Below are positions 2,080 to 36,474 of a stretch of DNA of 42,209 bases, in pieces. This DNA is from Psammoneis japonica (lineage: Eukaryota): assembly GCA_008632985.1 (NCBI GenBank), contig QPGO01000233.1:62001-104209 (forward strand), written 5' to 3'. Every line of letters begins with the position of its first letter. The first letter of the stretch is position 1. A program made the translations under genes and the position numbers. The notes under the pieces were generated by a model. The model made no database searches. It worked only from the letters and a program-made list of their open reading frames with translations, and was not told where the DNA came from.

Positions 2080-4150
2080 GTGTGCTGTCCAGGAGCGTCT
2101 TCGACAACGACCCGGGGCACTGCGCGTGGTGAGAAGACAAAGTCAGAGGTGTGGACAAAAAGCTGTGGAATCAAAACAAGGTTCACAGGTGCAGCACCTG
2201 CTTTGTCCGCAGGAAACCACTTCCAAAGAAGTCCCAGCTCGCGTCTGTGACCGCCTCGGACATTTGCTGAATTGCACATGGGCAGAATCAAAGCGGAAGT
2301 TGCTAGAAAGCTGTTCTTCATGTTTGTTGTTTGACTTGAGAGTGCAAAGCATTGAACTGAATGAGGTTGTGTGCTTGATCTTGCAAAAAGGGTTCGGGGT
2401 TCGGGTCGCATTGCTGTGCATTGGCGGCGCAGCCTGCCACAGCACAGTGCACATGGCAGATGTGTGTCTCAAAATGCGGGATTGCGTCATGGCCGGATGA
2501 TGAGCTGCGCTCCATCGGATTGATTCAATGAAACTCTTGCTGTGCTGCAGACTGCTCTTTTGTGAACGATTGAGTCATCATTCTAAAGAGTGATTGTGAA
2601 AAGGTGCAACACCAGGTGTTGAGAACGAAACAGGTCTTGTTTTGCCCTGAGTGGCTCTCGTCTCATGGGCCACATGCTTGCAAGAACGGCGCGCTCAAAA
2701 CTCATTTTTGACAGAGTCGTGCCTTGCGGCACCGCGATCACCCGAAACTTCCTGATTGAACAGCAGAGCATGTGTCAGATGTTCTCGCCTTCTTCCTGGA
2801 TCAATGTCTTGGCATGGTCTCAATCACAACGGCAGACACTTCACTGCTGTCTCTCACCTGCCCCTGCAGTCTGTTCTCTCAAAGTTTGTCTGAGTTCACG
2901 ATGGCAGCATTTCGAGTTCACAAAAAGGCACAACACACCTTTCCTTTGCAGATTCGGGAGGACTCCAGGTGTTCTCGTTGGCACATGGGTGTGTTCAAGA
3001 GGAATGCACCAAGCACACTTAGACAAACCTTTCCATTCTTGTGCAAGTTGGGGCCAAACCTGACGATGCCTCCGCCGGTCGTTTGCAGCAGCACCACACG
3101 AGGTGAGTGGTGAGGGCAGTCATTGTTGACACAACTCTCTCAACTGTGGCTTAAAAAACACTGTGCAAGGTGACTTGACAAGAGCTTTTCCTTGTCATGC
3201 AAGAGCTCCATTTTTTGAACTGTGTGCTTTGTGTTTCGAATCTTTTGCCAACCATTCAAAGCCAATCTCTTTCAGTTTCTCAATCCAACATTGACCCATT
3301 TCACAGTTTCCCCGCTTCATCTGAGAGTGTCTTCTCCTCTGATTTGATGCCCACATGCCTGGAGAAGGGTCAGACTCGCAATGACAAGGAACACTGCAGT
3401 GTCCAACACTTCTTCCATGCTCTGCTGGTCTCTCCCACTGCGCTCGCCACTTTGCTTGCTGTTTTCCGGTCTTTTGTCTCTCCTTTTGAATGCAACCAGT
3501 GATTCCAAGATTTTTCAAAAGCTCTTGGCACCTGGGGTCGAGCTGGCTGGTCTTCATAAAGCTCCTTTGTCTTGACAACCAACCGGAAAGGGAAGCGCTT
3601 TCTCCGGCTTTGACAGCAACATTGCCCTGTTTGGTGTGTGGGTCCTTCAATTGCTTGTGCTTGCTTTCCCATGCCTTGTTGTCTTGTTCTTGGTGGCAAG
3701 GCACTTCTTTGTAGTTGGTGCTTTTCAACTGCTCCAACTGTTCCTTTCGAAGCATTTTGTGGTGGTGACGTTGACACGCAAGCCATCATTGAGACAAATG
3801 AGCACATTCTGGATCGTTTGGAAGCGACAAATGCCCATTCTCCACATAAAAGTCCTTGAGCTTCTGAAAGTCACTCGACCATGCTTCATTCCTTGATGGG
3901 TTGACTTTCATCAAGGAAGAAGTCGTCATGGTCGAGGCCCTTCGTGAGTCCTTGTCACGCTTTCTTCTCGAATCGTGTGATTGTGTGCACTGCTGTAAGG
4001 GCTGAGATGAGCGCGCGGATGAAGGAAGTGGTCAGTCCCGCACACTCATGACTCAGTACTTTCCTGCGGTGAAAATTGCGCAGAGATCCGGTGACAAAAA
4101 CGGTCCGATGACTTCCGCCAACAATGACATTGACTGCATGCGATGTGCAT
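2080..4150. other. TpA-depleted domain 1
   Basis: TA is nearly absent and CA/TG abundant. CpG is still fairly common. Normal TA frequency on both sides. Confidence 0.9.
3195..3890 (-). pseudogene. Helicase-associated (HA) repeat protein, decayed
   Basis: Three HA-like repeats: W..DFQKLKDFYVENGHLSLP...*WLACQR, WESKHKQLK...GNVAV...LSGWLSRQR, and W...GHCSVP...GMWASNQR...IEKLKEIGFEW. In-frame TGA near 3790. His/Cys occupy positions where Tyr is expected. Confidence 0.8.
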
Positions 4151-4452
4151 TCTATGTTCTTTAGCATGTGAATGAACCACTTTAAGCGTTGGATGCAGTT
4201 ACTTTGATGAACTTCGCCAAAGTGGCGCTTAGCACTGCTTTACGTACAAAGCTAGTCTCCCTTTGTATGTAGGGTATGGGATTTGTCTCCGTGTGTTAGA
4301 CCAACTACAGGTCGATATGATAATTACTCGTTTTCATTGAACGAGAACTATAGAGCATTTGCTTTTGTCTTTTTTTTTATTCTTTAATGTTATCCGGGAC
4401 CAGTGAAGGGATACGAGGTATCTTGATTGTTGGAGTTGGAGAATGGAACTTT

Positions 4453-5311
4453 TTATCGTTGGTGGTTGGTATAGCCGGATCGATCATAGGTGACACCGTA
4501 ATCCATAAACAATTCCTCTCCCTCGTACACATCTCGACACAGCGAAAAGACCACTTTTCTGTTTGCTGTATCTTCATCTGTCACGACATTGACACTCGAG
4601 CCAGGCGGTGGCTCATTGATGCGACAAAGCGTCGTTGGTACTTGGACAAATTTTCCCACTAAATGTTCCATGAGCCACGTCGATCCAAAGGAGGATGGGT
4701 TCCCACCTCTGGTCATGGGTTCAATCTCTCCTTTGGAATTGGTTGGATCAATCACCATGGCATTATCCGAGAATCTCCACACATAAGCCTCACAAGCCGG
4801 ATATTCTTTCAATTTTCTTAGATTCTGTTCCAACGGCAACACTACTCCAGGATATGTTCCCAAAACCGTGTCTTTTTCACACAAAAATCAGTGTGAGATT
4901 GGCAACGAAAATGACTAAGCGACAACCACACGGAGATTCGTTTCAATACACACCCTTTGCCATGTTTGCTGTACAATACAAACCGAGCCCCGCACCCTTG
5001 ACTTGGCTCTGGGCAACTCGTAAACAGTCGACATTGACTTGTCCCCGCGGTCGATCCAAGCCAACCACAAGTCCAACATAGGTGAGCGAGGCAGAAGCCG
5101 CTCGAGCAAGCCACAGCGATGCGCCGCTCGATGCAAAGGCAATGAGCGGTGGTGGTGGCGGTGACAATGCATCACACGATGGATAATAATTATTGGAAAA
5201 GGCGAGAATCAAAAAGAAGGCAAGTGATGAGCAGATCTGCCTGCGTTGTCTTTGTTTACGCGCATAAGAATTTCTCTTTCGAGAATATCGACAAAGAAAA
5301 GATTTGTTCAT
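4453..5311 (-). CDS. SET-domain protein (2 exons; intron 4872-4953)
   Basis: S.VKGAGLGLY..., LCRINEP, RDVYEGEELFMDYG motifs. An 82-nt GT..AG intron joins MAK|DTVLGTYPG in frame. ATG at 5311. Confidence 0.85.
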
Positions 5312-5977
5312 GTTTCCTCCAGTACTGTAAGAAATCAATCTCACAATCAGCTTTGTTGTGGTTGGTGTATTCTTTTTCGGTCGCCTCGCCTCATCGTCCC
5401 GTCATGGCTGGATGTTTTTCATTGTTGTATGTTGGATGTGGCGACGGTCAGCCGTCAGTCTTGGCTCGTGCGATCTTGCTTGGCGCCAAATTTTCTGTAC
5501 AATAATACCAGAGAGCCTGTATGTAGAATCTTACATAGAACTTATACTGATTCATGCGTTGGATTCCACAAATTTTGTGAGTTGGCGCGCCGTGGTACGA
5601 TTGTACATACACGGACATTATGACTTCTCGAATATATTCAAATTATTCAAGTCATATACATTTTAGTTTAAGTCATTTTGTCTAAATGTTGAAATGACCA
5701 TTTGTGACGTTTGTACAAGAACAACGTAGATTCCTACGCCATTTAGTCTGAAAGACCCACGCAACGCTCAACTCCCGCGAAATTTCGAGTTTGAGGGGAA
5801 CCAAAACACACGATTCTTGTTCATTCATATGTTCTCAAAAAGGTGAAGTCGAGTGTGCTGACCACCCTGCAGGGAATAGAAAAGAACACAAGGCACCCCG
5901 TCTTTGGCTGATTTGATCTTGGTGTCGAGCGAGAACGACAAAGCCGAAAAGAACAAACAAGATATACATCATCAATC

Positions 5978-8446
5978 ATGATGGCGCGTTTGACAATAAT
6001 GCCATCGGTCCTCTTGTCACTCATTGGCACAGTCTCGGCTGCCTTTACGCCGTATGGCTACCAATCGGGAAAGGATATTGGGAGCTCCTTTGCGGGCGGG
6101 ATGGTCTATGACAAGCAGAATCATCTTCTCTTTGTAACGGGTCAAACCTACGGTGAATTCTTCTTGGGAAACGACATTGGTCTCGTCCCCAATCCCATTG
6201 CATCCAATTGTTTCTTGGGAATCGCCAAGTTGCCGTCGGAAACCAATACAAGATTTGAGTGGCTGTACACTCGTGAGATGGGAAACGCGTCCGTGGCGGA
6301 AGCCTGCACATCGTTGATTCATTATCCCGCGCCGCAGAACAAGCTCTATGCCATTGGCCATTCCGAAGAGGGAGGTACCGTGACTAGGATTCGTCCCGCG
6401 GGTTCCTCCAAATCGAAAGTCTATGGTGTCATGGCGGACTTTGATGTCATGGTTAGTGGTTCTGGAGATGATCAAACGGCATCATTGAAACTCAACGGTG
6501 GTCGCTTGTTGCATCCCGAACCTGGTGCTCATTATCCCATGGCTGTATCCAGCGAATGGGATCGGCGCGGGTTTTACATGGCTGCTATGAGTGCTAGGAA
6601 TTCCTATCCCTCTCTTCAAGAATTACCTGAGAGTCAGTCAAGGCCGGATTTGACCAAGGGTGGTTGGAGAAAGTACGGGAGAGGCTATGAGTTGATTTTG
6701 CAGTATCTCAGTCCTCTCGAGACACCCATTACGTCCGACAAGGTGGACTTGAATGAAACTCTCAAGGGCGAACGCATCTTGACGACGGGTGCGACGGACA
6801 GTGACGGGAAAATTGTCGATGTACACATTACATCGGTTCAAACCATGAGTCCAACGTCGTTGCTGATCGCCGGATCGACATCTGGATTCGGGAATGCCTT
6901 TGAAGAAAAAGGATCGGAGAATGGTGATACCGACGGCTTTGTCACCAAGGTGAATCCATCCATAAGAAAGGTCGAAAAGGCGGTCCGAATTGGCTCTGGT
7001 GAAGATGATTACATCAATGCCATTTGTCACCATGAGGACAGCGTCTTTGTGGTTGGTACGACCTACGGTATGCTCCGCCAAGAAGATCGGGAGAGCATTG
7101 GAGCCGAGGCCTTTATTGTCAAGTTGGATGCCGAAACGATGGACATCATTTGGATTCGGCAGTTTGCAGCTGTGGCGGGGCCCAACTCTTTTGAAGATCC
7201 CGAGTATGAAGAGGAGTATGACGCTCATGCAATTGCATGCGCCGTGACACCCGATGGCGATACCGTGTATGTTGCTGGCAATGTGGATGAAGGCGCGTTG
7301 CTTGTGGAGAATGAAGACGACGATCCTAAAACATCCTCGTTGGGAGGCGATGACATTTTCTTGATTCAGCTTACTGCGAAAAATGGGGAAGTCAACTACA
7401 TTGTTCAAGAGGGTACCTCCAAACATGATCGCATGGCCCATGGCGGTGGGTTGGTTGTCGACAATGATGGCAATGCCATTGTCATGGGAAGTACCAATGG
7501 TGCTTTCATTCGGAACAAGGATGTCGATGACGAGCACTTTACAGATGTCTTCTTTTTGGTCTTTGACAAGAGTACAGGTCAGCATCAGACATCGATTGAA
7601 CGTGAAAAGGCCATGAATGGCGGAATCATTCCTCCCAAGGGTAACCCGCCACCAGCAGAGTTTGTTGACCCCGGGGACGATGACTATGATGATGACGATG
7701 ACGACGATAACTCACAGTTCTACGATGATGATGACGACGACGACGCTGGCGACGCCCCTGAAAACTTGGAGAAGAGTGGTGAAGGTGGAGGTGGTGTTTC
7801 AGGATTTGTCATTTTTCTCTGTCTTCTGGTTGGTTTGGCAGTTGTCGTCTGCGGGACATTTATGGCTCTTCGGTCAAGAAAAGAAATACACAGGAAACTT
7901 CAGAACAGTCCCACGGTCGATCCTGTATCACCTTATCTTGTTAATTTCAACTACGGCGACGTTGATATGAAGCACTCCGCCACCGGTGGCTACCACGGTG
8001 TTTACACGGATCCAAAGTTTAGTCAAGGAGTCGACACGAGTCCAAAGGCACGCACTCAGACGACAGAGTTGGAAGAGATCAAATTTGACGTTGGCGCCAC
8101 TGGCGGTGGAGCAATCTCTTCCTCAACATTCAATTCGTCCATTGTTATGAATTCACTCTTTATGGATGACTTGGACGAACCTCAACTAGGCTCTACGGCC
8201 TCTGGCGACACCCGACGCCTAGCCACCATGAATGAAGACGACGAAGCTGAAGCAAACCATAGTGCTTCGCAACGGCAACTCAGTACCTACGATGACTTGC
8301 TTGATGCGTACAATACCACTTGGGACGATCTCAATCCCCATAAACTCCCTAGCAGTGGCTTGTCTGCATCAGGGAGCAGTCGGAAGAAGGAGTCGGAATC
8401 CTTATTGTCTAATGACAACGATCCTTGGGGCCAGGAAATCATATAG
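5978..8446 (+). CDS. Type I membrane protein: signal peptide, beta-propeller (SBBP-like) ectodomain, poly-Asp linker, one TM helix, acidic cytoplasmic tail
   Basis: Intact 822-aa ORF with a hydrophobic N-terminus, repeats such as VFVVGTT.G, D.F..KL...G...W.RQ and VYVAG, a DDDDYDDDDDDD tract and TM FVIFLCLLVGLAVVVCGTFMAL. Confidence 0.88.
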   Translation: MMARLTIMPSVLLSLIGTVSAAFTPYGYQSGKDIGSSFAGGMVYDKQNHLLFVTGQTYGEFFLGNDIGLVPNPIASNCFLGIAKLPSETNTRFEWLYTREMGNASVAEACTSLIHYPAPQNKLYAIGHSEEGGTVTRIRPAGSSKSKVYGVMADFDVMVSGSGDDQTASLKLNGGRLLHPEPGAHYPMAVSSEWDRRGFYMAAMSARNSYPSLQELPESQSRPDLTKGGWRKYGRGYELILQYLSPLETPITSDKVDLNETLKGERILTTGATDSDGKIVDVHITSVQTMSPTSLLIAGSTSGFGNAFEEKGSENGDTDGFVTKVNPSIRKVEKAVRIGSGEDDYINAICHHEDSVFVVGTTYGMLRQEDRESIGAEAFIVKLDAETMDIIWIRQFAAVAGPNSFEDPEYEEEYDAHAIACAVTPDGDTVYVAGNVDEGALLVENEDDDPKTSSLGGDDIFLIQLTAKNGEVNYIVQEGTSKHDRMAHGGGLVVDNDGNAIVMGSTNGAFIRNKDVDDEHFTDVFFLVFDKSTGQHQTSIEREKAMNGGIIPPKGNPPPAEFVDPGDDDYDDDDDDDNSQFYDDDDDDDAGDAPENLEKSGEGGGGVSGFVIFLCLLVGLAVVVCGTFMALRSRKEIHRKLQNSPTVDPVSPYLVNFNYGDVDMKHSATGGYHGVYTDPKFSQGVDTSPKARTQTTELEEIKFDVGATGGGAISSSTFNSSIVMNSLFMDDLDEPQLGSTASGDTRRLATMNEDDEAEANHSASQRQLSTYDDLLDAYNTTWDDLNPHKLPSSGLSASGSSRKKESESLLSNDNDPWGQEII

Positions 8447-8794
8447 TAGGGAAATGCTCTGATTGAGGCGTAGAATAGACGAATGAAGAACCTTTGGGCC
8501 TTGTTCGTTTAACGGTCGGCGTGGCCAGAGACTCACCTTGTTATCGATGTGTTACACGTTCTCCATTAGCAACTGTAGGCCGGCGCTTCTTTTGTCGATT
8601 CGACAGCTATTTTAGCTGATTGAGTTCTTGTGCCATAATCTACGTACTGTAGGCATATCTAGAGTGGGATTTTTAGTAATTGTTTATGATAATAATGCAT
8701 TTATTCATAGGGACACTTTCGTTTACGCTGCTGTCGTCGTATGAAACATGAAACTGAGCTTGAGGCTTTCCTGATTTTGTAGTTACGCGTGAAA

Positions 8795-9418
8795 CTATGC
8801 AATATCAAGGTCGCGTTGAAGTAACAGAGGCGAGCTTCCACGTAAGTTCTCGATGTCGTTCAAGCCAAAGATCAAAGAAACTGAATTCGGTGAACTCCGA
8901 TGGTCCAAGGTAGCAACGCGAGGCCTTTCAATATTCTGCGGGGATCCAAGCAAACGACATGGTCTTGGCTTCAATCTGATGATCTTCGGAGGAGGCAATG
9001 GTCTTGCCTCGGGTCTTGGTGATGAGTTGAATCTTTCACGTTGCTGAATGCTCTCTTGTTCGAAGAACTGCATTGTGCTGACGGATATAGAGAAAGATTC
9101 TATGCTATCCTCCCTTTCGAAACGACCTTGTCGTAGATCAGCTCCTCTGCAAGGAGGACTTGGGTAGTATCTCGACTGCTCAGCTCTTTTACTCTGCTCA
9201 ATTTCTTGTGGTGTAATAAGAACGAAGTCGCGCCTTTTTGTCTTCTTCGTTCGGACCAACGGATCTTCATTTCGGTTCAACAAAGAGTCGGCGCGATTTG
9301 GGGTGTGTTCTTCCATTCTACTAGGGATCACAAGCTGCGGGTAAGGGTGCGGCTGAAAACTGCCACCGATGTCCATGGCTTCTGTGAGAGCGTGATTTGT
9401 GTGTTCTTCGTTGCACAA
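8795..9418 (-). CDS. Hypothetical protein (DFVLITP.E / IRLKPRP motifs)
   Basis: 207-aa ORF with normal composition. Its motifs are shared with the neighbouring paralog at 10195-10872, which supports real coding. Confidence 0.65.
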   Translation of the reverse strand: MCNEEHTNHALTEAMDIGGSFQPHPYPQLVIPSRMEEHTPNRADSLLNRNEDPLVRTKKTKRRDFVLITPQEIEQSKRAEQSRYYPSPPCRGADLRQGRFEREDSIESFSISVSTMQFFEQESIQQRERFNSSPRPEARPLPPPKIIRLKPRPCRLLGSPQNIERPRVATLDHRSSPNSVSLIFGLNDIENLRGSSPLLLQRDLDIA

Positions 9419-10194
9419 GTTCGTTCAAGATTTATGCTGATTGAATTATGCCAATGTTAAGTATCGCGGATTCTGTTCGGATTCAGAATCTTTTTTCGCG
9501 CCAATGACTTTGACACGTAATCACTGGATGTCATTGAAGGGAAATTTGGAACTGCGAATGAGCTTTGAAGCGTGTAACGCCCGTCCTTAAATGAAAATAT
9601 CGGTTGAAACGCAAGTGGAACTTCATAGAATTCACTCCGATGTGGTACATACCTTACGCAGTTCTACGTAAATTCGAAAATTTGGGGAAAGCATGATGTC
9701 AGCTGGGGTCACAGCAAATACAAAACGCCGCGGTCGCGACGGAAGAAAACTTCATGACGAAGCCTGGGAGGCTTTGAGTGACCTTTCAAAGCGGATTTCG
9801 ACTCTTCCTTTCGATGCAATTTGTTAGTCGTCAAACGTGGATGAGAGGATCCATCCTGGTGGAGCTCGACGTGTCATGACATTCTGGATTTCAAATGCAT
9901 TGCTTGAAACAAGTTGAGTCCTGCGCGCGCACCCATGCAGCAGCGGAACAGTCTGATTGGAAATGCTTCGCAAATTCCTGGGATGACAAAATCATCACAA
10001 TCTTTGCTTTCTTCAATGAGCTTCCTGACCATGCAGGAGAAGCGGCATGTGTGTGTCATAAAATGGTGGACGGAGTGGTCAATTCCGTCGCCACTCTGAA
10101 TGAGCTCGCTGTCCATGCCTTCATGGCAGGCACCACAGAGGGAAAAACAAGATGTGAGAGAATTGTTTGTGCACGCTTGTGAAAAATGAAATGG

Positions 10195-10872
10195 TCAAGC
10201 TGCACTCAAGAGCCACGCGTCAAACTCCGATGTGACAATGCAGTCGTCATGAAGTGTTGTTGCAGGGCTTTCCCCACATTCGGGAAGATCAGACACCGAA
10301 GCAACTGCGCGAGGAGAAAGCAGATGGTCGCTCACACTTTCTCTACATGAGGTCACATTTCGAAACCTTTCAGCATTCAGCTGAGCTCCAAATGGATGAC
10401 AGGGTCTTGGCTTCAGTCTCACAAGCTTCAAAGCAGAGGGCTCCACTCCTTGTTTTGCTGACAATTTAAAACTCTTGGGATGGTCAATTTTCTGCCCTTG
10501 TTCGTTGAAGTTTGTGTTGGTGGCCAGCAAGGAAAATGTTTCTGTTCTCTTCCCTCTTTCGAGGTGACCTTGTCCTGCATGCAGATCAGAGCATAAAATG
10601 AAGACTGCAGTGGGACAGTCTCCAGAAAGATGCTTGGCTCTTCTGCTCCCCTCAAGTTCCAGAGGTGAAACAAGAACGAAGTCATGATGAACCTTGCTTT
10701 TCTTTGCAATCTTTTGCACTGGGGCCATGGAATCTTCAACATGATTTGGCAAAAACTCTGGATGGGGATCTTTGAAGTCTGCCATGACTTTCAGGTGGGA
10801 ATGCACGCCAAGTTTGATTTTCATTGTTTCGCACAAGCAAGGAGAAAATGGCTGTTGCCGGTCCTTTCTCAT
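10195..10872 (-). pseudogene. Tyr-free, probably hypermutated paralog of 8795-9418
   Basis: DFVLVSPLELEGSRRA vs DFVLITPQEIEQSKRA; KLVRLKPRPC vs KIIRLKPRPC. No Tyr in 225 aa. Lies within TpA-depleted DNA. Confidence 0.65.
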
Positions 10873-27699: not shown

Positions 27700-28830
27700 A
27701 TGGACGACGGCAAGCACAAGCACACGACCAGACTGGGGCGTCGCGCTTGGACTCCTCTGCTCTGGGATGTCTGTCTCACTCAGACTCTGCTCTGGGATGT
27801 CTTGCTTGGACTGGACAATGACTCACCCACACTGCTTTCTCACTCCATCTGATGACAGGATGTCAACCTGTTGGATGGATTGCTCTGAAAACACAGGAGG
27901 AAGTCGTCACTGATGCCATTCAGTTTGTGGAAGAAATCATCACCACCAATGATTGCTCAGACAAAGAACTTGCAGAGTTCTTTTCAGAGTGTTCTCAGCA
28001 CCATCATGGCTGCAACAAATGCCAGCAAGCATTCTGTTGAGCACACGTGGCATCCAAACAGTCCAACAATTTGGAACTTGCACAGGACATCCAAATGTGG
28101 TGTGAAAGCCACCCTGAATTCATGTCGTGGCACCAGGTGTGTCAAGGATCCTACACGGCGAACCAAGAGCTTCCCAAGTGGGACAATCATGAATCGGTGA
28201 AAGCAGATGGAGTGGTCAATCACAAGCCTGCGCCGTCCGTGGAATCATGGCTGCTCCTTCTCATCAAGCAAAGCCACACCTGGCTGGAGAACAAGAAAAA
28301 AGGATGGGAGGAAGGCCTTCCTCATTGTGGTGCACCAATCTCAGACTTTTTCAACAAGCATTGCATGACAGCTGGTTCCTTTGTCACACGGGAAGTGCGC
28401 TCCAGGATTGAGACGGCCCTCAAGAGCGCTCCGGAGCAAGAGGAGCTTGAATTTTGCGTCCCCAGTGACACCACTGCCAACAATGACCCCTCATCCCACA
28501 GTGCGGCCATGTTGCCTGCTGAGTCCCCCGCAGTTGTTCCCATTGCACAAGATTTGCGTGGACGAGGTTCAAGACATGAGTCAAGCTAAGATCGGTTTGC
28601 CATTTTTGGTGAGCACAAATCACCCTGATTTTCTTTTTCTGGCTGGTGACCCTGCTCAGGCTGTGGCCCAGGGTGTTGACTTTTGTTTCAAGGTGGTCCG
28701 TTCTGTCATTCACATGATTTTTGAAGGCAGGGAGAAGATTGAGCATTGGCAAAAACTCTGCCACAACTTTTGCAGCCATGAGGGGATGTCCTGAAAGTGG
28801 CCAATTCTGCACTGGGCTGTCTTCTCAAGG
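27700..28830 (+). pseudogene. UvrD-like SF1 helicase fragment (TRANK1/LBA1-like)
   Basis: ICVDEVQD (Walker B), FLAGDPAQAVAQGVDFCF, LCHNFCSHEG (consensus L..NYRSH.G); frameshifted. Confidence 0.7.
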
Positions 28831-29104
28831 CCTTTCCCACAGCAGCATTGAAGCTGGAGCATGATGCGGGACTTGTTCAGGGTGAGCTTTAAGTGTGCAT
28901 CAAACTGTTGCCTTTTGCCATTCTTGAAAGCAAGCATCACTTGTCCATCTGTTGGCTTGTTTTTCCTTGTTTTGTTTGAAAGGACTCCAGCCAGGACTGC
29001 TGACCAGTGACCACAAGGAGCTGCCCGAGCTTCTTTGCATTGCAGACACAAAAAAAGCAAAAAGAATGCTCTTCAAACCCTTGGACCACTTCAAACAGTG
29101 TTGA

Positions 29105-29190
29105 ATGTTGGCATCTGCTTGAGCCGCCCAGCAAGCTGTTGGCACCTGCTCAAGCCACCTGGCAAGCTGTTGGCATCTGTTTGAGCCACC
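29105..29190. repeat. About 31-bp tandem repeat, roughly 3 copies
   Basis: tgttggca(t/c)ctg...(g/a)agcc..c..gcaagc repeated. Confidence 0.7.
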
Positions 29191-29929
29191 TTGCATGATG
29201 CAGCGTGCACTTGAGCCGTCTTGTTTGAAATGGCATGAACTTGAGCTGCACCACATGATGTGACATTTTCCTGTGGAAACATGGACAAAAAATCAAAGGA
29301 AAACAAGAAGTTGAGAAAACTAAAAAATGCATTGAATCAACAGATTAAATCAAATGCTTTGGAGTGATGGGATCATCTTGCTGAGAATGTGAGAGAATGA
29401 AGAAACAAATTTCGGCTCCAGAGAATGTTTTCATTTGTTTTCATCATGAGCCAGTTTTTGGGTTGACAACAGCAGGTCCAATGGCATCAACACAAAATTG
29501 ACAATGCTCATTTTCAGCCATGATGACCATTGTTGCAGGTGCTTTGTGTTGGTGATGTTTGTGGTGGTGGGAGAAACTGGAAACTGGCTGTTTCCGTCCA
29601 CACACATGCTGCTCACTGCAATGCTGTGCAATCACCTGTGCTCCTGATGTGAGCACTGGTGCTAACTGTGATGCTGTGCAAGTGCCTGTGCTCCTGATGT
29701 GAGCACCGGTGCTGCACTGTGCCCCAACTGGGCTCTGTTTGTTTTGTGCTTTGCAGTGTGAATTTGAAATTTTTGACATTTTGGCCTTTTTCTGTTGTTT
29801 TCGCTTGACGTTTTGGCAAGCGTCCCGCAGTGCTGCAGCGTGCACATGTGTTTTCAAAATCACAACAATCAAAGCCAGACATCTCTGCAAAACACTGTTT
29901 TTAAAATCACAGACTCAAGTGGTGGATTG

Positions 29930-31180
29930 ACAGCATGTGGAGGATGGCATGGAAGATGCACTTGGTGGCGGAGCACAAGGTGATTCAAGTCATTTGAAGC
30001 ACAATGTGGTGATTCGATTGCAGCAACAAAGCCTTGCTCCTGCCCAAGAACTCACATGGGTGTTGCACCACCACTTCACATGCACGTCAAAAAAAGACTG
30101 CAGTTGGACATCATTCTCTGGAGGAGTGTCACTTCAGCATTGCAGCAACGGCAATCATTTGCAGCATTTTGGTCACTGCAAGTGTGGCAAAAGAAGACAG
30201 TGCTGTCTTTTTAACAGAAATGCCAGACAGATCTAGATTGCAACAAGATGATTGTGTGTGCAGAGTTCTTGCCGGTCAAACAGTCATGGCATTGCAGCAC
30301 AAGGACAAAAATGCATTGGAGCTGATCACACAGTTGCACAAAGACAGAAACAACAGAGGCTTCCTGAAGGACTGGCAACATTTTCATGCTTGAAATGGAC
30401 CTCTGCTTTCCCCAGTCATCACACCAAATGTGTCTGCAGACACTTGTCCAAGATGCCACATGGTGCCCTGCATGTGCGCACTGAGGAACCCTGCTGTTTG
30501 GACCTTCCCAAGCCTGTGTGCAACTGGGCTCAAACCATGAGTGGTGGTGATGCAGAGGAACTCCTCAACCAAGACACACCCAAGCCACTTGGCAGTTTGG
30601 TTGCCATGACTCATCATGTTGATGCAAACTTGTTCCATTGCATGCTTGCCAGTGGGTGTTTCATTGTGGGCATCATTCATTTCCTCAACAAGTTTCTGGC
30701 TGGCCAATGGTTGTTCTCCAAGAAATGAGCCACAGCCAAGACTGCAACACATGGATCTGAGTTTGTTGCTGCCAGGACCTGTGTTGAACAGATCATTGAT
30801 CTGCGCATCACTTTGCGTCACCTCAGTGTCCTGATCCATGACACCTGTCACATGTTCGGGGATGACAAGTCAGTTGTGGACAGTGCTGCCATCCTGCACT
30901 CCAAGCTGCACAAGCAACACACACCACCCTCTTGTTCCTTTGCATGTGCAAAGCCATTGCCTCCAGCTTCCTTGAGCTTCATTTCATTGAAGGCTCGCAC
31001 AACCCAGCTGATGTCCTCAGCAAGCAGTGGGGTTGCCCCCAGATCTGGAGCCTCCTCTGCCCCCCCCCCCCCCCCCTCATGTTTTGGAACTTTGATCCCA
31101 AGGCCTTTGTCCAATGTCCAATCTGATGTCAAATCTGTCACTGCAGACTCTTCAAGCAAGAAACTGGGGAGTGACAGGAT
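29930..31180 (+). mobile_element. Ty1/Copia (CoDi-like) RT-RNase H remnant 2 with 3' polypurine tract
   Basis: HVRTEEP, PKPLG..V.MTHHVDANLFHCML, FSKK*ATAKTATHGSEFVAARTCVEQIIDLRITLRHL, MFGDDKSVVDSA, HSKLHKQH, NPADVLSKQWG. GGGGAGTGACA at about 31166. Confidence 0.9.
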
Positions 31181-31299
31181 TTGACCAAGACTTCAGCTTG
31201 TGCACATGATTCTGTGTGCTCTTGGTTCCATGCGTGGTGTGCAATGCAGTTTGCTTTGAAGCCACTCAGCTCACAAGAACAACAACAGCAGTGCTGACA

Positions 31300-32540
31300 T
31301 CATGCCACACATCTTTCAGCTCCTGCAGTGGTCTTTGCATGGAGACTCATCTGCCATTTAGACTGCCGCAAGGAGCCATTGTTTTCTTCCATCCATTTCC
31401 TCCTCAATTGCTGTCAAACTGTTTTGAGCGAGTCAAAAAGATTGGCCCCAACCAATCAAAAAAGTTGGTTTCTGGCTCTGCAGGAAATGGGGATTGTGCA
31501 GTGGCAAAAAATGGACAGAAATCCTGCAGCTGGGAAAGCCAAGTGTGCTGCTGTTGGGGACAATGTGACCTGGGGCACAGTGCTGCAAGATCAACCTTGC
31601 AATGCCCAACAACAGCTCTTGAAGTCTTGCCCTGGGCCCATGAGAGCTGTGTCCTCAGCTTGCAGCCATCAGCTTGGCCAGCGCCACAATGGCACACTTT
31701 TGGAATGAAATGACTTGGAAATTAAAGTTTGTTGTTGCTTCATTTTGTCAACAAGCACAAAATTGTTCTGGAGCACTTGTTGAGAACACAGGATTCTTGT
31801 TGTCAAGCACAGATCAGCTCTGAACAAGAACAACAAAATTTTCCAGACAATGAAGACATTGGGGGACAGAGCAACCAACCAAGCAAACTCTGGAGTGAGG
31901 CAAAAGAAAACAGGGATGGCAATGCTGGTTTGCAGCTGCCACAACTTTGCAAAGTTGACAAAGTCACAAATGACAACAAAGTTGACAATGTTGCCAAAAT
32001 TGCCAAACTTGACAAAGTCGCCCAAATCAGCACAGTTGCCAAAGTCAGCAAACTTGACAAAATTGCCAAACTTGACAAAGTTGTGCCTGCAAAAGGTTTT
32101 CTCTCTTCTGCACATGAGACAAAGTGCTTGATGATTCACACTTGGGCGAATGTTGGCTCAAATGTTGACACAAAAATGTCTGCAATTGCTTCATTCTTGT
32201 CAACACACACAAAACCAATCCCCCATTCCTTGTTGGCACAAGGAATGCATGCATTGCAGATCCAAACATGGGTGGAGCATTTTGACTGTGCCCAGTTTTG
32301 CATTGTTGGTTTGGATGAAATGTCCAGCAATCCCTCCACAGCACTTTGGAACGGGTCTTGGATCATTTGGACAATCCTCCTCGTGTTGTTGACACTCCCC
32401 CAACTTTGGCCCAAACAATCAATGGGACTGTGGTTTGGATGCCATTGTTGACCAGGACACACTGGCTCTTTTGGCCTGGTTTTGTGAGTGGCGCAATGAG
32501 ATTCTCCAATTTTTGTCGAGCTTGTTGCAAATGTTTTGTG
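31300..32540 (+). pseudogene. Sulfotransferase-domain gene remnant with an internal low-complexity insert
   Basis: PMRAVSSACSH (cf. P..RAYSAY.H), SLLAQGMHALQIQTWVEHFD.AQF.IV..DEM..NP, ERVLDHL, WFCEWRNE.L. Confidence 0.55.
31950..32085. repeat. 9/18-bp period tandem repeat (aaa-ntt-gmc; KVDK/KIAK/KLDK)
   Basis: aaagttgacaaagtc...aaaattgccaaacttgacaaagt repeated. Confidence 0.75.
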
Positions 32541-32829
32541 CCTTTAGAATGGCGATTGTCACCCCAGCGTTGTGCAACTCTGTGCAGGAGGATCACAACA
32601 GCCAAATCAGTTGCTTTGTCATTGGCTCTCCACTGAAGCCAACTTCCACAACTCTGCTGGAGACACACCTCAAGAACAATGAGGAGCAGCTTTTGTTTGT
32701 TGGTTTTTGAAAGCGGCACTTCTGGCAAGTTACTTCGAAGTAGAAGAGATTGTGAGTTGAAAAAACGCTGTGTTATGATGTGCCGCATGCAAAGTAGAAG
32801 CATTCTGTCACACACACCAACTGGAGTGT

Positions 32830-34600
32830 TTTGTGTTAGAGATGACTCAACGGAAAGGAATCGCCGGAATCACTGAACAATGCACATTTCCCACGACCCC
32901 AAATGTCGAACATACGAAGTGTACACACAGCAATTACACAGACTCATGTCACAGTCTCTCCAGTCTTGAACATTGCATGCTTTTCGGTTCGACAGCGGTT
33001 TTGCCAAAAACGTTGACAAAAATGAACCATGACGGCAAACCTGTCCCCTGCGTCTCTGACTCTCTTGTGGCATCGCTGAAACAAGCTCACTTTCTTTGAT
33101 TCGCATTGAACGACACCTTTGAAAGCTTTTACGATGACCATGACAAGCATGGTTGCGCACTCTGATGCTGCTTGCCACAAACAAGACCCGGACGCCCATC
33201 CCGAGGTCAACCTTGCCGAAGAGCAAGGCTTTGTCTCGCTTGGACGAGACAAAAAGGAGGTGAGTTGACTGCGCATTGTGTTTCAGTCGTGCAGTTTACT
33301 GCAATCGCTTTCGTGACTTGCTCTCTCTCTGTCGCTCTCTCTTCTGTTGTGCTGTCGCTGCATCTGGTTTCTTCTCATTGTCTCACCATTTCGGTTTCAT
33401 TTGATCTACAACGACTGCAGGCTCTCGAGTCATGTCTCACTTGTTTCAACAACGAGTGGACTCTCGATGAACGCTTTGACGGGCTCTGTGGGCTGGAGAT
33501 TCTTGAAATCGAGGCCATGGAGAAAGGTCAAGCCGCACCTCTGAATCTCCAAGAGAAAGAGGAGGGAGCACGCCCTGTCTCCTGGGGTGGCGACGAGCAG
33601 AAAGTTCTCGAGCACTCTCCTGTGAAAAATGTGAGTTGATCATTCAGCGCATTGCCTTTGAGTCTCACGGCTTTGCTGTGATTAGATTGTCCTCATCTCA
33701 CTGTCGCTTCCATCGAATTGCCTTTCCGCAGGTTCTCGCATCATGCATCCCAGGTGATGGGCCCTTTGCGCCAGAGATTCTTGAATGCGAGAACAACGAG
33801 ACTGCTCAAGCGCATGCTCCAAAGAAAATGAAGCGACCCAGTTTTGATGACGGCTGGGGAGAGCCAGAAGTGCTCGAGCATTCTCCTCTCAAAAATGCAA
33901 GTCATTCATTCGACATGTTGTTTGCCAGCATGCCATGTGTTTGGGGACTTGTTGTCTCATCGTCGTTCGAATTTATGTGTGTTTTCCTGCAGGTCCTCGT
34001 GTCATGCGTCCCTGCTTTGGCTGCTGAATTTTCTGCACTCAACCGGCGTAATGCAACTGTGTCGGAACGCGAGGACAAGGAGACAGCTCAGGCGGACATG
34101 CCAATTCTCCAGAAGAAAGAGAAGCAACCCAGTTTCAACGACGGCTGGGGAGAGCCAGAAGTGCTCGAGCATTCTCCTCTCAAAAATGCAAGTCATTCAT
34201 TTGGCATGTCATCTACAGCATGAAAGTTTCAGATTGTTTGCTGTCATTCAGGCTTGTTGTCTCACCCTTGTTTCAATCTTTTTGTCTTTTCTACAGGTCC
34301 TCGCATCTTGCGTCCCTGCTTTGGCCGCTGAATTTTCTGCACTCAACCGGCGCAGTGCGACTGTGCCAGAACGCAAGGACAAAGAGACGGCTGAAGCAGA
34401 CACGCCGATTCTTCAGAAGGAGGAAAAGCAATCCAGTTTTGATGGCTGGGGAGAGCCAGAAGTGCTCGAGCATTCTCCTCTCAAAAATGTAAGTCATTCA
34501 TTCGGCATGTCATCTACAGCATGAAAGTTTCAGATTTTTTGCTGAGTTTGGGGAGTTCTCATTGTCATTTCAATCCATGTGTTTTCCCCTGCAGGTCCTC
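32830..34600 (+). pseudogene. Copy 2 of the exon-module gene (phase-0 exons 33421-33630, 33732-33896, 33993-34187, 34297-34488)
   Basis: All four exon lengths are multiples of 3. Acceptors are YAG after pyrimidine tracts. Donors GTGAGT (33260, 33631), GCAAGT (33897, 34188), GTAAGT (34489). Exon peptide VLAS.VPALAAEFSALNRR...DGWGEPEVLEHSPLKN. Confidence 0.82.
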
Positions 34601-34814
34601 CCGATCTTGCCTTGGGCAGTGGCTCCCAAAAGGGCACGAGTGAGTGACGAGGCATCCTTGCCAAGATGGTTGTCGTTCCCTTTCTTGAAAAAGGTCAGAT
34701 CCAGCAGTTGCTTGTTTGCAGGATGCTCGTCCAGGTTGTCATTCTTGAGAGCACAGACACTGGTGCCCAATGCACATTTCTCAAATGCCAAACAGATGTT
34801 GCTGGTCTTGAGTG

Positions 34815-35075
34815 CACGCATCTGATGGTCTGATGTGAGCACCTTGTGGAATGAAATGCACTCCACTGAGCTCTTGCCAGCCTCTGCCATGACTTGGCAA
34901 AACAACTGTGCAGATTCATGGGGAGCGGATCTGCCCCTTTGCGAATGATGCACGCATCTGATGGTGTCTGATGTGAGCACCTTGTGGAATGAAATGCACT
35001 CCACTGAGCTCTTGCCAGCCTCTGCCATGACTTGGCAAAACAACTGCAGATTCATGGGGAGTGGATCTGCCCCTT
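34815..35075. repeat. About 136-bp tandem duplication
   Basis: cacgcatctgatgg...gattcatggggag.ggatctgcccc at 34815 and 34951. Confidence 0.9.
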
Positions 35076-36474
35076 AGCAAATGGCACTGCTGTGAACTTG
35101 ATGGTTTGTGCACCCCTTCAAGAGGCAATTGCCTTGGCAGAACAATCCAAAGCAGGTCCAATCTCTGCATTTCCAATGGATGCAACAGTGACGCTGAGCA
35201 ATTCACCAGATTTGCACCACTCTCCATGGGCACAGGAGCTGCTTTGAAAGGGGCCATGCCAGTTTTGATAATTCTTTTGCCAGTCTTCTCCACTTGCTGG
35301 GTGGCATTGGCATTGATGGCCATTGTTTGTTTGTCCAGCTTGCTGTCCAAAAGGGTGGCCATTCGATCTTCCGCCGACTGCTTGGCTTTTCATGCCGCAT
35401 TTGATGCCTCCAACTGTGCTTGCAACTCAAGCATTTTTTCATTGTTCCTTTCTTTGCCTTGTCAGCAGCAATCTTGGCTTTTGATGTTGCATTTGATGCC
35501 TCCAGCTGTGCTCACAACTCTGCAATCTCTTGTTGTTGTTGTTCCAGCTTTGCATTTTGCTCCTTCATTTTTTGATCTTTTTCATTTGATCCAAGCGCAG
35601 GTCATCAACAAGATCTTTTGTAAAACTGGTTTTGTCTTTGATCACACTGACTTGGATTTGTCATGCAGCTGCATCATCAGCTGCTGCCATGACCTTGCTT
35701 TCTTCCATGTGAGCCCAATGATCTGCAGACACAAAAAAGGACCATGCATCATGCTGGGGGGTGGCGGTCCACGATGGCCACCTTCGAGTTCCCCTTTGAC
35801 ATCATCTTTGAAAGTTCTGATGGGCACAAGGTGTTGATGGTAGGAGGTGTCACAGCAGACATGGGTGGTGGCTTGCTGCTGTCATTGGCACTGGCAATGT
35901 TGCTGCTGTGCACGGAAGCTGCGGGTGCTTGCAGGGCATGGTCGATCTTCCATTGCATGTGTCTGGACCGTGTGGAAGCAAAGAGCTCACAGATGGGCTT
36001 TGGGCAAGGGACATTGCACAATTCTGAAAGACCATCCTTGATCTCTTGGACAGACCATTCCGTCTTTTGGGGGTTCTTGTGCATGACAGCTGAAATGGCT
36101 TGGTGCGTGTCGCGAGGCTCCAACTCAAACTTGCCCGATGGCTTGCGAATGAAATTTGATCCATCAAAGCTGAAATGATTCTTCTTGACTGATCACAAAC
36201 TCTAACCAATCACTGTTGCATCCTTTGGTCTGAAAGTAGATGGTGTTTTGCTCGACAGATCGAGATCCAGCTTTGGCCAAACAGAAGCGCCAGGCGTCGT
36301 GCATTCGCTGATCTCTCACAACTTGCTGCAATCAACGCATCGACGGTGCGCATGACACATTGCGTGCTGCCAACAGTGGTGACGTCCCTGTCGGGTGCCA
36401 GTTCTGCACGACAAACGCGGCGATCGGAATCCTTCGTCATGGTGGATTTGTTGTTGCTCGTTGTGTTTTTTTTT

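Follow-up and report, generated by a model that had tools for sequence, protein, structure and literature searches.

Kilobase-scale blocks of TpA loss in the diatom Psammoneis japonica and a candidate region-restricted A:T-to-G:C process

Deaminases of the TadA/ADAT2 type have the U33-A34-C35 motif of the anticodon loop as substrate, and engineered TadA base editors are DNA-active relatives of these tRNA adenosine deaminases. In amphioxus, BjADAT2 was reported to deaminate DNA cytosine preferentially at TCG (PMC10354150). The closest described system is that of Bigelowiella natans (Mettrop et al., bioRxiv 10.64898/2026.01.13.699255). According to this preprint, mutation accumulation showed TpA hypermutation of integrated viruses. 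Two viral regions together carried 231 de novo mutations; with one exception these were A>G or T>C, and the A>G/T>C mutations were stated to fall on TpA. Mutation was observed as it happened, at ~6e-7 per site per generation, and TpA was reported still to make up 3.3% of dinucleotides in the large viral region. The preprint proposes an ADAT2-like deaminase. A single-copy target was also mutated, so homology was not the trigger there. The first-pass annotation of the diatom sequence studied here knew of no published description of such a process; this 2026 preprint supplies one for TpA-specific hypermutation in B. natans. A literature search for a report of TpA-specific hypermutation in diatoms found none. 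We analyzed a stretch of 42,209 nt from Psammoneis japonica (GCA_008632985.1, contig QPGO01000233.1, positions 62,001 to 104,209), called the window below.

Extent and composition of the blocks

Sliding windows and pooled counts gave three TpA-erased blocks, at approximately 2079-4000, 9826-15143, and 25481-36474. Together they held 79 TA in 18,457 nt (o/e 0.06), compared with 936 in 23,365 nt outside (o/e 0.59), an approximately ten-fold depletion. At the outside o/e, 720 TA were expected in the blocks (Poisson P ~1e-204). The longest TA-free runs were 1129, 1125, and 1005 nt, and the median TA-to-TA gap was 18 nt. The o/e values in the blocks were 0.41 for CG, 1.68 for CA, and 1.66 for TG, compared to 0.98, 1.17, and 1.13 in non-block sequence. 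CA and TG were raised equally, and the GC content was the same inside and outside. When 93% of TA and 60% of CG were converted in a simulation on non-block sequence, CA/TG reached 1.7-1.8, as in the blocks, with a GC of 0.484 compared to 0.485 observed. The intact genes of the window showed a TA o/e of 0.28-0.63 and CA/TG of only 1.05-1.30. The blocks therefore formed a class of their own and were not an extreme of the variation seen among genes. The results were consistent with the first-pass annotation, which had described three TA-poor blocks with an excess of CA and TG. The edges were slightly corrected, and its spot counts were exact (2 TA in 30001-30600 and 5 TA in 38821-38880). The bounds, which it had called sharp, were very sharp at the left of block 3 and sharp at the left of block 1, but gradual at the right of block 1. 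It had also placed most duplicated sequence in the blocks, and 14 of 15 self-matches of at least 80 nt lay wholly inside them; one linked a block with a non-block copy.

Block 1 (2079-4000) kept CpG over approximately its first 60 nt, and 9 TA were counted in 2080-4150 (o/e 0.07; CA 1.58, TG 1.52). On its minus strand, 3198-3785 was the remnant of an open frame in which a helicase-associated (HA) domain was recognized (PF03457, E 1.5e-18); the frame had 2 TA in 588 nt (TA o/e 0.05, CG 0.39, CA/TG 1.57). Block 2 (9826-15143; 30 TA in 9850-15250, o/e 0.08) consisted of a core at 9826-14404, an inner patch of normal TA density at 14405-14834 (17 TA), and an end at 14835-15143 where TA was erased again. 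An erased, diverged copy of the non-block stretch 8908-9229 was located at 10350-10683 (63% identity).

Block 3 (25481-36474; 40 TA in 10,985 nt, o/e 0.06; CG 0.34, CA 1.70, TG 1.72) was cut at its right end by an N gap at 36475-36861. Its part at 30350-31951 was highly repeated, with a summed contig word depth of 565 to 13,890 compared to ~60 over the single-copy gene region. A Copia-type reverse transcriptase/RNase H remnant, 5'-truncated near the block edge, was found by protein matches on the plus strand at 25841-27397 (tblastn extent). It had 130 database matches (best E 1.1e-34), with RVT_2 in all 10 of the matches tested, and was not detected in a Pfam search of the window. Two Copia remnants had been claimed in the blocks; only this one could be confirmed. 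At six Tyr columns conserved among relatives, the remnant carried Cys three times and His, Trp, and Phe once each. The absence of Tyr at all six matched a loss of TpA. At six conserved Arg columns, Arg was also found at none.

Direction and spectrum of the change

The DUF7919 gene region at 18915-19948 (minus strand), outside the blocks, was intact and unmutated (TA o/e 0.60, CG 0.96), and the direction and spectrum of the change were read against it. Its ORF at 19323-19868 (minus strand) encodes a conserved DUF7919 protein, with a weak match to PF25535 and six homologues of 53-61% identity. The erased pseudogene copy was located at 11357-12390 (~80% identity). The 34 TA of the intact copy had become TG at 18 sites and CA at 14, and 2 were kept (32/34 changed). 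The reverse was rare, since only 1 of 146 CA/TG sites of the intact copy was TA in the block copy. N[T>C]A gave 32 events over 82 strand-sites, or 94% of TA sites, and non-TpA T>C and non-CpG C>T were near 3-5%. The TA changes were not clustered by strand (21 runs compared to 16.1 expected, z 1.84). A regional A:T-to-G:C change at TpA on both strands had been proposed from the first reading, and this pair agreed with it, as did the Copia protein comparison, the simulated composition, and the CA/TG swaps between block copies given below.

Pol eta makes A->G errors at WA motifs, and TA is the hottest. Error-prone repair synthesis of this type (WA/TW hotspot), recruited to silenced chromatin, was among the mechanisms suggested at first. 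It fitted poorly because the AA/TT contexts were at background (N[T>C]T 7/151); the selectivity for TpA was far too strict, and transversions at TA were not raised. We regard it as very improbable.

The segment at 12509-14232 in block 2, including ~300 bp tandem units (13450-14354), was shared with 32832-34544 in block 3 (81% identity). The block 3 copy with its ~300 bp tandem units covered 32832-34610, where TA was erased (o/e 0.07-0.24) and CpG was largely kept (0.63-0.89). The shared segment held 48 CG in block 3 compared to 13 in block 2, and 16 CA/TG swaps separated the copies. The two block paralogues had resolved the same sites differently, which indicated that erasure occurred in place, after duplication. 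An RNA-level origin, by A-to-I hyper-editing of retroelement transcripts fixed through reverse transcription and reinsertion, was also considered. RNA-editing deaminases prefer a 5' U, as discussed in the B. natans preprint (10.64898/2026.01.13.699255), and a Copia remnant was present in one block. However, the changes were strand-symmetric and interleaved (TG:CA 18:14; CA 1.68 compared to TG 1.66), which contradicts this origin. Non-retroelement DNA was erased too (the host-gene pseudocopy, the HA remnant, and tandem repeats), the two resident segment copies were erased independently, and erasure ended at domain edges, not at element ends. We give this origin hardly any credence.

The DUF7919 region 18915-19948 is itself duplicated, yet it was untouched, and erasure was found only in its block partner. 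This suggested that targeting follows the domain and not homology, and the comparison of the two sequences argues against a RIP-like homology trigger. The notion of an "inverse RIP" acting on repeats did not hold as the trigger.

Contigs of the public run X1 matched 28300-28896, 28872-29481, 29671-30536, and 31593-32485 with 0-1 differences, at a depth of 64-80 compared to 60 for the single-copy region. Since they carried the TA-free sequence of block 3, it was not a polishing artefact, a concern raised at the outset; run X1 may be the assembly's own data, so that the match rules out polishing error and is not a fully independent sample. A reading with no special process, whether the blocks were an artefact of assembly or polishing, were foreign DNA with a composition of its own, or arose through selection or GC-biased gene conversion, found no supporting evidence and was contradicted. 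In addition to the match with the X1 contigs, GC content was not raised and non-TpA W>S changes were at background. The affected sequences were pseudogenes and dead transposable elements, and the paralogues within the window showed that the change happened there. Such a reading is scarcely credible.

Flanking bases, candidate mechanism, and CpG loss

In the DUF7919 pair, 19 sites were informative in that one strand offered 5'-TAY, and at 18 of them it was the A of that strand that had changed (p 8e-5). Where one strand offered TAC, that strand was the mutated one at 15 of 16 sites. Most of the evidence for the 3' pyrimidine bias in the window comes from a single paralogue pair. Residual TA was depleted at RTAY, with 6 where 23.5 were expected, and enriched at YTAR, with 32 where 13.8 were expected (p 1e-8). 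Compared with an unbiased simulation, TGC/GCA were in excess and CAC/GTG in deficit. Tyr was absent in 7 of the 130 database relatives, and in these proteins and the window remnant conserved Tyr was replaced by Cys and His at 19:6. The bias supports a T-A-Y motif of a deaminase-like kind. It was not replicated in the environmental locus L062 (8 of 18 sites), where the TA o/e was 0.06 and CA or TG stood at 26 of 32 columns with TA in relatives. In a related environmental family, Tyr columns held His as often as Cys. Five of the 8 swap sites whose flanks were identical belonged to the class in which no swaps would be expected under a strong bias, although some of these may be CpG-derived. Among 80 related environmental Copia loci, one was erased as fully and one partly.

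The best explanation, which we hold to be probable, is a region-restricted change of TpA to TpG/CpA, likely by a TadA/ADAT2-like adenine deaminase targeted to domains. The process worked at the DNA level and turned nearly every 5'-TpA-3' into TpG or CpA, so that the A:T->G:C transition could fall on one strand or the other. The affected domains consist of the truncated Copia element, repeats, and dead host-gene copies, and the process acted in place after insertion or duplication until saturation. GC content stayed unaltered, and all TAA/TAG stops and Tyr codons were lost. The candidate enzyme would act on DNA that is transiently single-stranded and convert its adenine to hypoxanthine, and A->G would be fixed because hypoxanthine pairs with C. 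It would require a strict 5' T and, in P. japonica, prefer T-A-C over T-A-T over T-A-R. Targeting would depend on a chromatin or silencing domain, not on sequence homology. The 3' pyrimidine bias lends indirect support to this candidate, a TadA/ADAT-like deaminase having been among the mechanisms suggested at first.

Since TpA is palindromic, a T lesion and an A lesion are indistinguishable by sequence alone. All spectra can be read as T>C at R-T-A, with G[T>C]A changed at 15 of 22 sites in the DUF7919 pair. A TET/JBP-type dioxygenase might make 5-hydroxymethyl- or 5-formyl-uracil, or a derivative, at 5'-(G/A)-T-A-3' in silenced DNA, and the modified T would mispair with G, giving T->C. In dinoflagellates, 5hmU is concentrated at TpA and TpC; 5-formyluracil causes A:T->G:C changes. 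However, the present data gave a thymine lesion no preference over adenine deamination, and the authors of the B. natans preprint favour a deaminase, likewise unproven. We consider a thymine lesion unlikely, though worth serious attention.

CpG was lost over most, but not all, block DNA, partly decoupled from TA erasure. TA was erased while the CG o/e was 0.6-1.05 in the stretches 32501-34500, 14501-15250, and 36001-36474, as well as over the initial 60-100 nt of every block. T[C>T]G was changed at 14 of 38 sites, compared to 4-5 of 24-28 in the other NCG contexts. The changed CpG cytosine had a 5' T in 28/55 cases compared to 16/55 on the spared strand (p 0.03), and a 5' W in 42/55 compared to 27/55 (p 0.005). 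These preferences would fit a single TadA/ADAT2-like deaminase that acts on both A and C (T-A-Y, (T)-C-G) and makes both layers. The CpG loss would then be not, or not only, spontaneous 5-methylcytosine decay. The TCG preference of amphioxus ADAT2 on DNA (PMC10354150) is in line with such an enzyme. However, AT-rich flanks raise spontaneous 5mC deamination. The two layers were spatially decoupled, and all four NCG contexts decayed above background, as methyl-CpG predicts. CpG methylation of transposable elements is established in another diatom (PMC2806351). We infer ordinary methyl-CpG decay for the CpG->TpG/CpA loss and find a dual deaminase doubtful.

Comparison with known systems

Methyl-CpG decay in silenced transposons resembled the CpG->TpG/CpA part of the blocks (CG o/e 0.41). 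However, such decay cannot account for lost TpA, and some parts of the blocks showed it spatially decoupled from TA erasure. The blocks resembled RIP of ascomycete fungi in that transitions had accumulated regionally, up to saturation, in transposons and duplicated DNA, with coding capacity destroyed and a dinucleotide signature as readout. In contrast, RIP turns CpA into TpA, makes TA, and lowers GC, whereas here TpA became CpA/TpG with GC unchanged; RIP mutates both duplicates, and the intact DUF7919 copy was spared. TadA/ADAT2-ADAT3 share the 5' T/U beside the target adenine, and the 3' C preferred in the window is like U-A-C of the anticodon loop. TCG was the favoured CpG context in the blocks, as for BjADAT2, but the DNA adenine preference reported for that enzyme is GAA, not TA (PMC10354150).

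The blocks were like B. natans, as the preprint describes it, in several respects. In both, the changes are exclusively A>G/T>C at TpA and yield TpG or CpA, whichever strand is hit; they are restricted to certain regions, where the DNA is non-host or silenced; the long-term trace consists of TpA-depleted and CpA- and TpG-enriched clusters; and reverse transcriptase and transposase domains occur among the depleted sequences. B. natans is a rhizarian, whereas P. japonica is a diatom (stramenopile). In B. natans the reported target is integrated viral DNA, whereas in P. japonica the Copia remnant, repeats, and pseudocopies of host genes were hit, and the live process contrasts with a window that shows only the saturated end state (o/e 0.06). 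The diatom blocks also had a CpG-decay overlay and a 3' pyrimidine bias; a term search of the preprint text gave no match for "CpG", "flank", "trinucleotide", or "downstream". The diatom blocks and the live mutation in B. natans point to a means of destroying unwanted DNA about which little is known.

Composition, edges and authenticity of the TpA-erased blocks

Dinucleotide ratios were calculated in 500-nt windows as observed/expected (o/e). The TA ratio fell from 0.4-1.0 to 0.00-0.10 across three stretches, in which CA and TG rose to 1.5-2.0 and CG was 0.04-0.4 over most of the length. Pooled over the blocks as delimited in the first-pass annotation, there were 79 TA in 18,457 nt, with o/e values of 0.06 for TA, 0.41 for CG, 1.68 for CA and 1.66 for TG. 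The rest of the window contained 936 TA in 23,365 nt, and the corresponding values were 0.59, 0.98, 1.17 and 1.13. About 720 TA were expected in the blocks at the outside rate (P ~1e-204), which confirmed the three erased blocks that had been claimed, and the two spot counts of TA given with that claim were exact. The longest TA-free run was 1129 nt, compared to a median distance of 18 nt between neighbouring TA. The GC content was 0.485 in the blocks and 0.478 outside.

The edges were placed from TA positions. Block 1 extended from 2079 to about 4000, block 2 from 9826 to 15143, and block 3 from 25481 to the N gap at 36475. The blocks had sharp edges and together contained a Copia remnant, repeats and pseudogenes, and the genes between them were normal. 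The TA o/e of intact genes in the window was 0.28-0.63. However, their CA/TG ratios were merely 1.05-1.30, and the blocks therefore formed a separate class. The LRR gene at 15445-16251, which has a 315-nt TA-free run, was considered as a case of erasure spill-over and rejected, since its TA o/e (0.32) and CA/TG (1.23) were within the range of the other genes. Inside block 2, a patch of normal TA density was observed at 14405-14834 (430 nt). It contained 17 TA as well as CpG, with TA-free DNA on either side (14169-14404 and 14835-15143). Either a later insertion or local protection from erasure could explain the patch.

The block composition was simulated by random conversion of 93% of the TA and 60% of the CG in non-block sequence to CA/TG. 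The simulated values were close to those of the blocks for CA (1.78 vs 1.68 observed), TG (1.70 vs 1.66), CG (0.38 vs 0.41) and GC content (0.484 vs 0.485). This meant that the TA and CG layers together accounted for the composition. What remained was more GC, and less AC/GT and AT, than simulated, and part of this remainder was explained by the flanking-base spectrum described below. The coding consequences were visible in the six-frame triplets of the blocks, where TGA (467) and TCA (475) were common compared to TAA (32), TAG (23), TTA (28) and CTA (22). Because TAA and TAG were scarce, long spurious ORFs abounded, such as that of 391 aa at 26738-27910, and gene finders will over-call false long ORFs in erased regions of this kind.

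A polishing artefact had been named beforehand as something that could undo the claim, and it was not borne out. In block 3, four TA-free stretches were matched, at 0-1 differences, by contigs of run X1, a public sequencing run of the same organism. The depth of these contigs was 64-80, compared to 60 for a 4.6-kb contig over neighbouring single-copy genes. Two further runs (X2 and X3) gave little or no coverage of block 3. The match ruled out polishing error, with X1 possibly being the assembly's own data and so not fully independent. The environmental and published cases described below provide the independence that X1 cannot give fully.

TA was lost in place, after duplication

The direction of the change was determined from a duplicated gene stretch. 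The ORF at 19323-19868 (-) encodes a conserved DUF7919 protein, which is 53-61% identical to its six relatives, and its gene is a host gene and not a transposon. The stretch around it, 18915-19948, has an erased copy in block 2 at 11357-12390. In the case of the 34 TA of the intact copy, the block copy had TG at 18, CA at 14 and TA at only 2. For the 53 CG, it had TG at 20, CA at 12 and CG at 12, so that about 32-33 were changed to TG/CA. In the opposite direction, TA was found in the block copy at 1 of the 146 CA/TG sites of the intact copy. When sites of the pair were classified, 65 differences fitted TA/CG loss in the block copy and 6 fitted the reverse. The intact copy had an ordinary composition (TA o/e 0.60, CG 0.96), which meant that TA had not been enriched there by a RIP-like process. 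The core proposal of the first-pass annotation, a regional A:T to G:C change at TpA on both strands, was correct, with 32 of 34 TA changed and with strand symmetry in the blocks (CA 1.68 vs TG 1.66).

The coding traces of the Copia remnant provided an independent check, and other copies were compared as well. At six Tyr columns conserved among its relatives, the Copia remnant of block 3 had Cys at 3, His at 1, Trp at 1, Phe at 1 and Tyr at none. At six conserved Arg columns it had Gln at two, and Trp, Cys, Lys and Ile at the others. This pattern is predicted by the conversion of TAY to TGY/CAY and of CGN to TGN/CAN. Block 3 was also compared with other genomic copies in run X1, and among the 12 differences listed, 3 would restore TA and 2 would restore CG. 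A 1.7-kb segment that includes ~300-bp tandem units occurs in both block 2 and block 3. Its two copies were 81% identical (761/936) and showed 16 CA/TG swaps (9 + 7). Adjacent double differences of this type are to be expected if the two copies resolved the same ancestral TA differently, one to CA and the other to TG. TA was erased where the sequences lay, after they had been duplicated, and this went faster than CpG decay. In the DUF7919 pair the per-site hazard, an indirect estimate of rate, was 2.8 for TA and 1.5 for CG, over a period in which divergence at other sites was a few percent.

The CpG layer was partly decoupled from the loss of TA. In the shared segment, the block 3 copy retained 48 CG and the block 2 copy 13, and TA was lost from both. 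TA was also erased where the CG o/e was 0.6-1.05, namely at block edges and at 14501-15250, 32501-34500 and 36001-36474. As a sequence pattern, the CpG to TpG/CpA substitutions of the DUF7919 pair matched methyl-CpG decay. The bases flanking CpG were counted in two pairs (11357-12390/18915-19948 and 12509-13460/32832-33790), in which the CpG cytosines that changed had a 5' W more often than those that were spared (42 vs 27 of 55, p 0.005).

A spectrum of intact-to-block changes with unchanged neighbours was compiled and written on the pyrimidine strand. Two peaks were observed. The first was T>C before A, with 15 of 22 sites changed for G[T>C]A, 7 of 19 for A[T>C]A, 6 of 21 for T[T>C]A and 4 of 20 for C[T>C]A. 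The second was C>T before G, in which TCG was the most decayed CpG context (T[C>T]G, 14 of 38), with 4-5 of 24-28 sites changed for each of the other contexts. The background of T>C off TpA and C>T off CpG was ~3-5%. Error-prone repair by a Pol eta-type polymerase with WA/TW hotspots, one of the mechanisms suggested in the first-pass annotation, should give A>G at both TA and AA. It was excluded by a TA over AA selectivity of more than 10-fold. The counts of changed strand-sites were 7/151 in AA/TT context and 32/82 in TA.

Since each TA has an adenine on both strands, the outcome reveals which strand was hit. TG and CA outcomes were interleaved (21 runs vs 16.1 expected, z 1.84), and no strand-processive clustering was found. 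At sites where one strand only read 5'-TAY, the mutated A lay on that strand 18 times out of 19 (p 8e-5), and the 5'-TAC strand was mutated at 15 of 16 (p 5e-4). The 79 surviving TA were scarce at RTAY (6 vs 23.5 expected), a context in which either strand is favourable, and over-represented at YTAR (32 vs 13.8 expected; p 1e-8), in which neither strand is. In addition, TGC/GCA was higher in the blocks than in an unbiased simulation (62.0 vs 52.7 per 1000), and CAC/GTG was lower (45.1 vs 50.4). In the tandem units, one-strand-class sites mostly had the predicted TG, 11 vs 3 in copies that are not independent. Against a strict rule, five of eight swap sites with identical flanks belonged to the one-strand class. 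The T-A-Y/T-A-C motif is a candidate and only partly supported.

Block contents and traces of erasure in other sequences

The Copia remnant was located by tblastn at 25841-27397, at the start of block 3. A full HMMER search of protein representatives with the read-through translation of 25720-27540 gave 130 matches (best E 1.1e-34). RVT_2, the Copia reverse transcriptase domain, was present in all ten matches tested, and gag-pre-integrase and SH3 domains were present in some. No gag, protease or integrase was found upstream of the remnant by tblastn. Pfam gave nothing on read-through translations of the Copia region even with E up to 10, which showed the extent of sequence degradation. It was claimed in the first-pass annotation that the blocks contained two Copia remnants, and just one was confirmed: 24 Copia-like proteins of at least 800 aa matched 25841-27397 alone (tblastn, E up to 1e-3). 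When the threshold was relaxed to E 5, the sole recurrent extra signal was weak and lay outside the blocks, at 338-826. This segment lies on the (+) strand in the open frame 2-1279, and the part after the integrase of several Copia polyproteins matched it weakly and co-linearly (E 0.004-0.3). It had ordinary TA (o/e 0.63) and may be a Copia fragment that was not erased, or the second remnant that had been noted.

Among block ORFs of at least 90 aa, Pfam recognised just an HA domain, in a remnant at 3198-3785 of block 1 (E 1.5e-18), and a weak UvrD-like domain. The latter lay in an open frame of block 3 at 28369-28791 (+), with a weak match to UvrD/REP helicases (E 0.0034). It has what we take by eye to be DExQD- and GDPAQ-like motifs and is probably a helicase pseudogene. 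Also in block 3, the segment 30884-31417 had a summed contig word depth of ~13,900 in run X1, compared to ~60 for single-copy DNA, and is part of a repeat family that is very abundant. Two identical direct copies of an 81-nt stretch were observed at 34828-34908 and 34966-35046, 138 nt apart. The stretch was duplicated recently and locally, after its erasure.

Downstream of the N gap, a spermine/spermidine-synthase ORF overlaps an AdoMet-decarboxylase ORF at 38271-40668 (+), forming a fused S-adenosylmethionine decarboxylase/aminopropyltransferase gene. It has 97 database relatives. Those named by organism are all from diatoms, with at most 49% identity over most of the query, and on this basis the window was assigned to a diatom rather than to Bigelowiella. 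Many diatom relatives carry both domains, and many also carry a SET domain. A separate SET-domain ORF is located 34 kb away in the window, at 4456-4887 (-).

Metagenome contigs were scanned with an alignment of five intact Copia relatives. The scan gave 597 matched stretches, of which 451 were confirmed as relatives, and the best 80 loci were analysed. The TA o/e was 0.41-0.86 in 78 of these 80. One locus, L062 (2329 nt), was fully erased, with TA at 0.06, CG at 0.45 and CA/TG at 1.53, and another, L033, was partly erased (0.21, 0.54 and 1.47, respectively). Seven relatives of L062 (77-82% identity) had TA o/e of 0.36-0.49 over the aligned parts. At the 32 columns with TA in at least 60% of these relatives, L062 had CA at 15, TG at 11, TA at 2 and other states at 4. 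In a leave-one-out comparison, loci L036 and L037 had lost about a third to half of the family TA, with 5 of 17 and 5 of 9 TA, respectively, changed to CA/TG. The strand bias for a 3' pyrimidine was absent from L062 (8/18), and His was as frequent as Cys at the Tyr columns of its family.

Proteins free of Tyr were found among the database matches. Seven of 130 Copia-like proteins (P0119, P0123, P0130, P0159, P0176, P0220 and P0222; 108-409 aa) contained no Tyr. At conserved Tyr columns they had Cys at 16, His at 5 and other residues at 3, compared to three control proteins in which Tyr was kept at 18 of 20 columns. Together with the remnant of the window, the seven gave a Cys:His ratio of 19:6 (p 0.015). 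A preference for TAY predicts such an excess of Cys, because the A of a Tyr codon always precedes a pyrimidine. These database proteins are probably ORFs that were called on TA-erased DNA lacking TAA/TAG stops.

Mechanism and relation to known systems

The change was at the DNA level, on both strands, strictly specific to TpA, limited to domains, carried to saturation and independent of homology between copies. GC-biased gene conversion was excluded, since GC content was constant and other W sites were at background. RNA editing followed by retrotransposition was also excluded, since the changes were strand-symmetric and non-retroelement DNA was erased too. We infer that the TpA change is enzymatic.

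As for the agent, the most economical choice would be a deaminase of adenine that strictly requires a 5' T. The anticodon-loop substrate of TadA/ADAT2 is U33-A34-C35, and the T-A-C preference of the window matches it. The flank would suit such a deaminase in the window data (TAY, TAC and Cys:His as described), and no such bias appeared in L062. A lesion on the thymine side instead of the adenine fits equally well, as the TpA target is palindromic. Whichever base is hit, targeting most likely follows a putative silenced chromatin domain. This would account for two observations, namely that the block copy of the host gene was erased with the functional copy 7 kb away untouched, and that TA erasure extended slightly past the CpG-depleted core.

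A wider reading can be offered, which we regard as unlikely. It is that an old defence, SAR-wide or older, is common to diatoms and chlorarachniophytes. Its enzyme, a TadA/ADAT2-type DNA deaminase guided by chromatin or small RNAs, would read DNA like an anticodon loop (T-A-C-G). Wherever a domain is silenced it would irreversibly erase TpA, and perhaps TCG, whether the DNA there is a transposon, an integrated virus or something else. If so, Tyr codons and TAA/TAG stops would all be destroyed at constant base composition, and the Tyr-free Copia frames and TA-free environmental contigs would be its widespread footprint.

To our knowledge, cytosine is the only base for which programmed or targeted mutation of DNA is a well-established genome defence, as in RIP, AID/APOBEC and methyl-CpG decay. 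For targeted A:T to G:C change at TpA there is a single experimental precedent, less than one year old and from one rhizarian alga. The end state in this diatom extends TpA erasure to a second major lineage, which is ecologically dominant and genetically tractable. It also shows that transposons and bystander copies of host genes are erased, not viruses alone, and that targeting is by domain rather than by homology. The candidate flanking-base motif narrows the search for the enzyme. In addition, Pfam misses the proteins of erased regions, and public databases already contain Tyr-free 'proteins'. For base editing, a natural deaminase that acts on DNA adenine and is tightly specific to TpA would be of interest.

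Two cited papers bear on the enzyme. The amphioxus ADAT2 has the DNA cytosine motif TCG, which is the favoured CpG context here, and its adenine motif, GAA, differs (PMC10354150). In a comparative survey of deaminases, several clades are listed in stramenopiles, among them LmjF36.5940-like and CDD-SAM-Tudor deaminases, and RNA editing or DNA mutagenesis is suggested for one clade (PMC3239186), which serves as a lead only. A term search of the accessible text of a Phaeodactylum transposable element survey (PMC2806351) gave no mention of hypermutation, RIP or dinucleotide, and that of a Phaeodactylum mutation-accumulation study (PMC6604790) gave none of TpA, hotspots or transposons.

The first-pass annotation knew of no published description of such a process. 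The literature search found one description of this type of mutation, a 2026 preprint on Bigelowiella natans, and none in diatoms. According to the accessible preprint text (10.64898/2026.01.13.699255), 231 of 302 nuclear point mutations in mutation-accumulation lines fell in integrated giant-virus and virophage regions, and all but one of the 231 were A>G or T>C, stated to be on TpA. The mutations arose in some of the lines only, at ~6e-7 per site per generation. The B. natans genome has 124 TpA-depleted clusters enriched in CpA and TpG, and RT and DDE domains are enriched among the depleted coding sequences. The authors of the preprint put forward an ADAT2-like DNA adenine deaminase, as a proposal only. 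A term search of that text gave no mention of CpG, flank, trinucleotide, downstream or diatom (10.64898/2026.01.13.699255).

Fungal RIP differs from the present case in both product and trigger. It changes C to T at CpA, with an excess of TpA and a drop in GC, whereas here the TA o/e was 0.06 and GC was unchanged. It is also triggered by homology and mutates all copies, whereas 18915-19948 was spared. The Bigelowiella process is the closer counterpart. In both, A>G/T>C change at TpA gives TpG/CpA (32/34 in the DUF7919 pair and 26/32 in L062 here), and the changes fall on either strand without strand-coordinated clustering. Unlike the viral targets described there, those found here include a transposon and bystander copies of a host gene. 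Saturation, independence of homology, the partly decoupled CpG layer, the candidate motif and the environmental traces go beyond that description. The finding is thus not unprecedented; it is TpA hypermutation of the kind reported in one recent preprint, now in a new major lineage.
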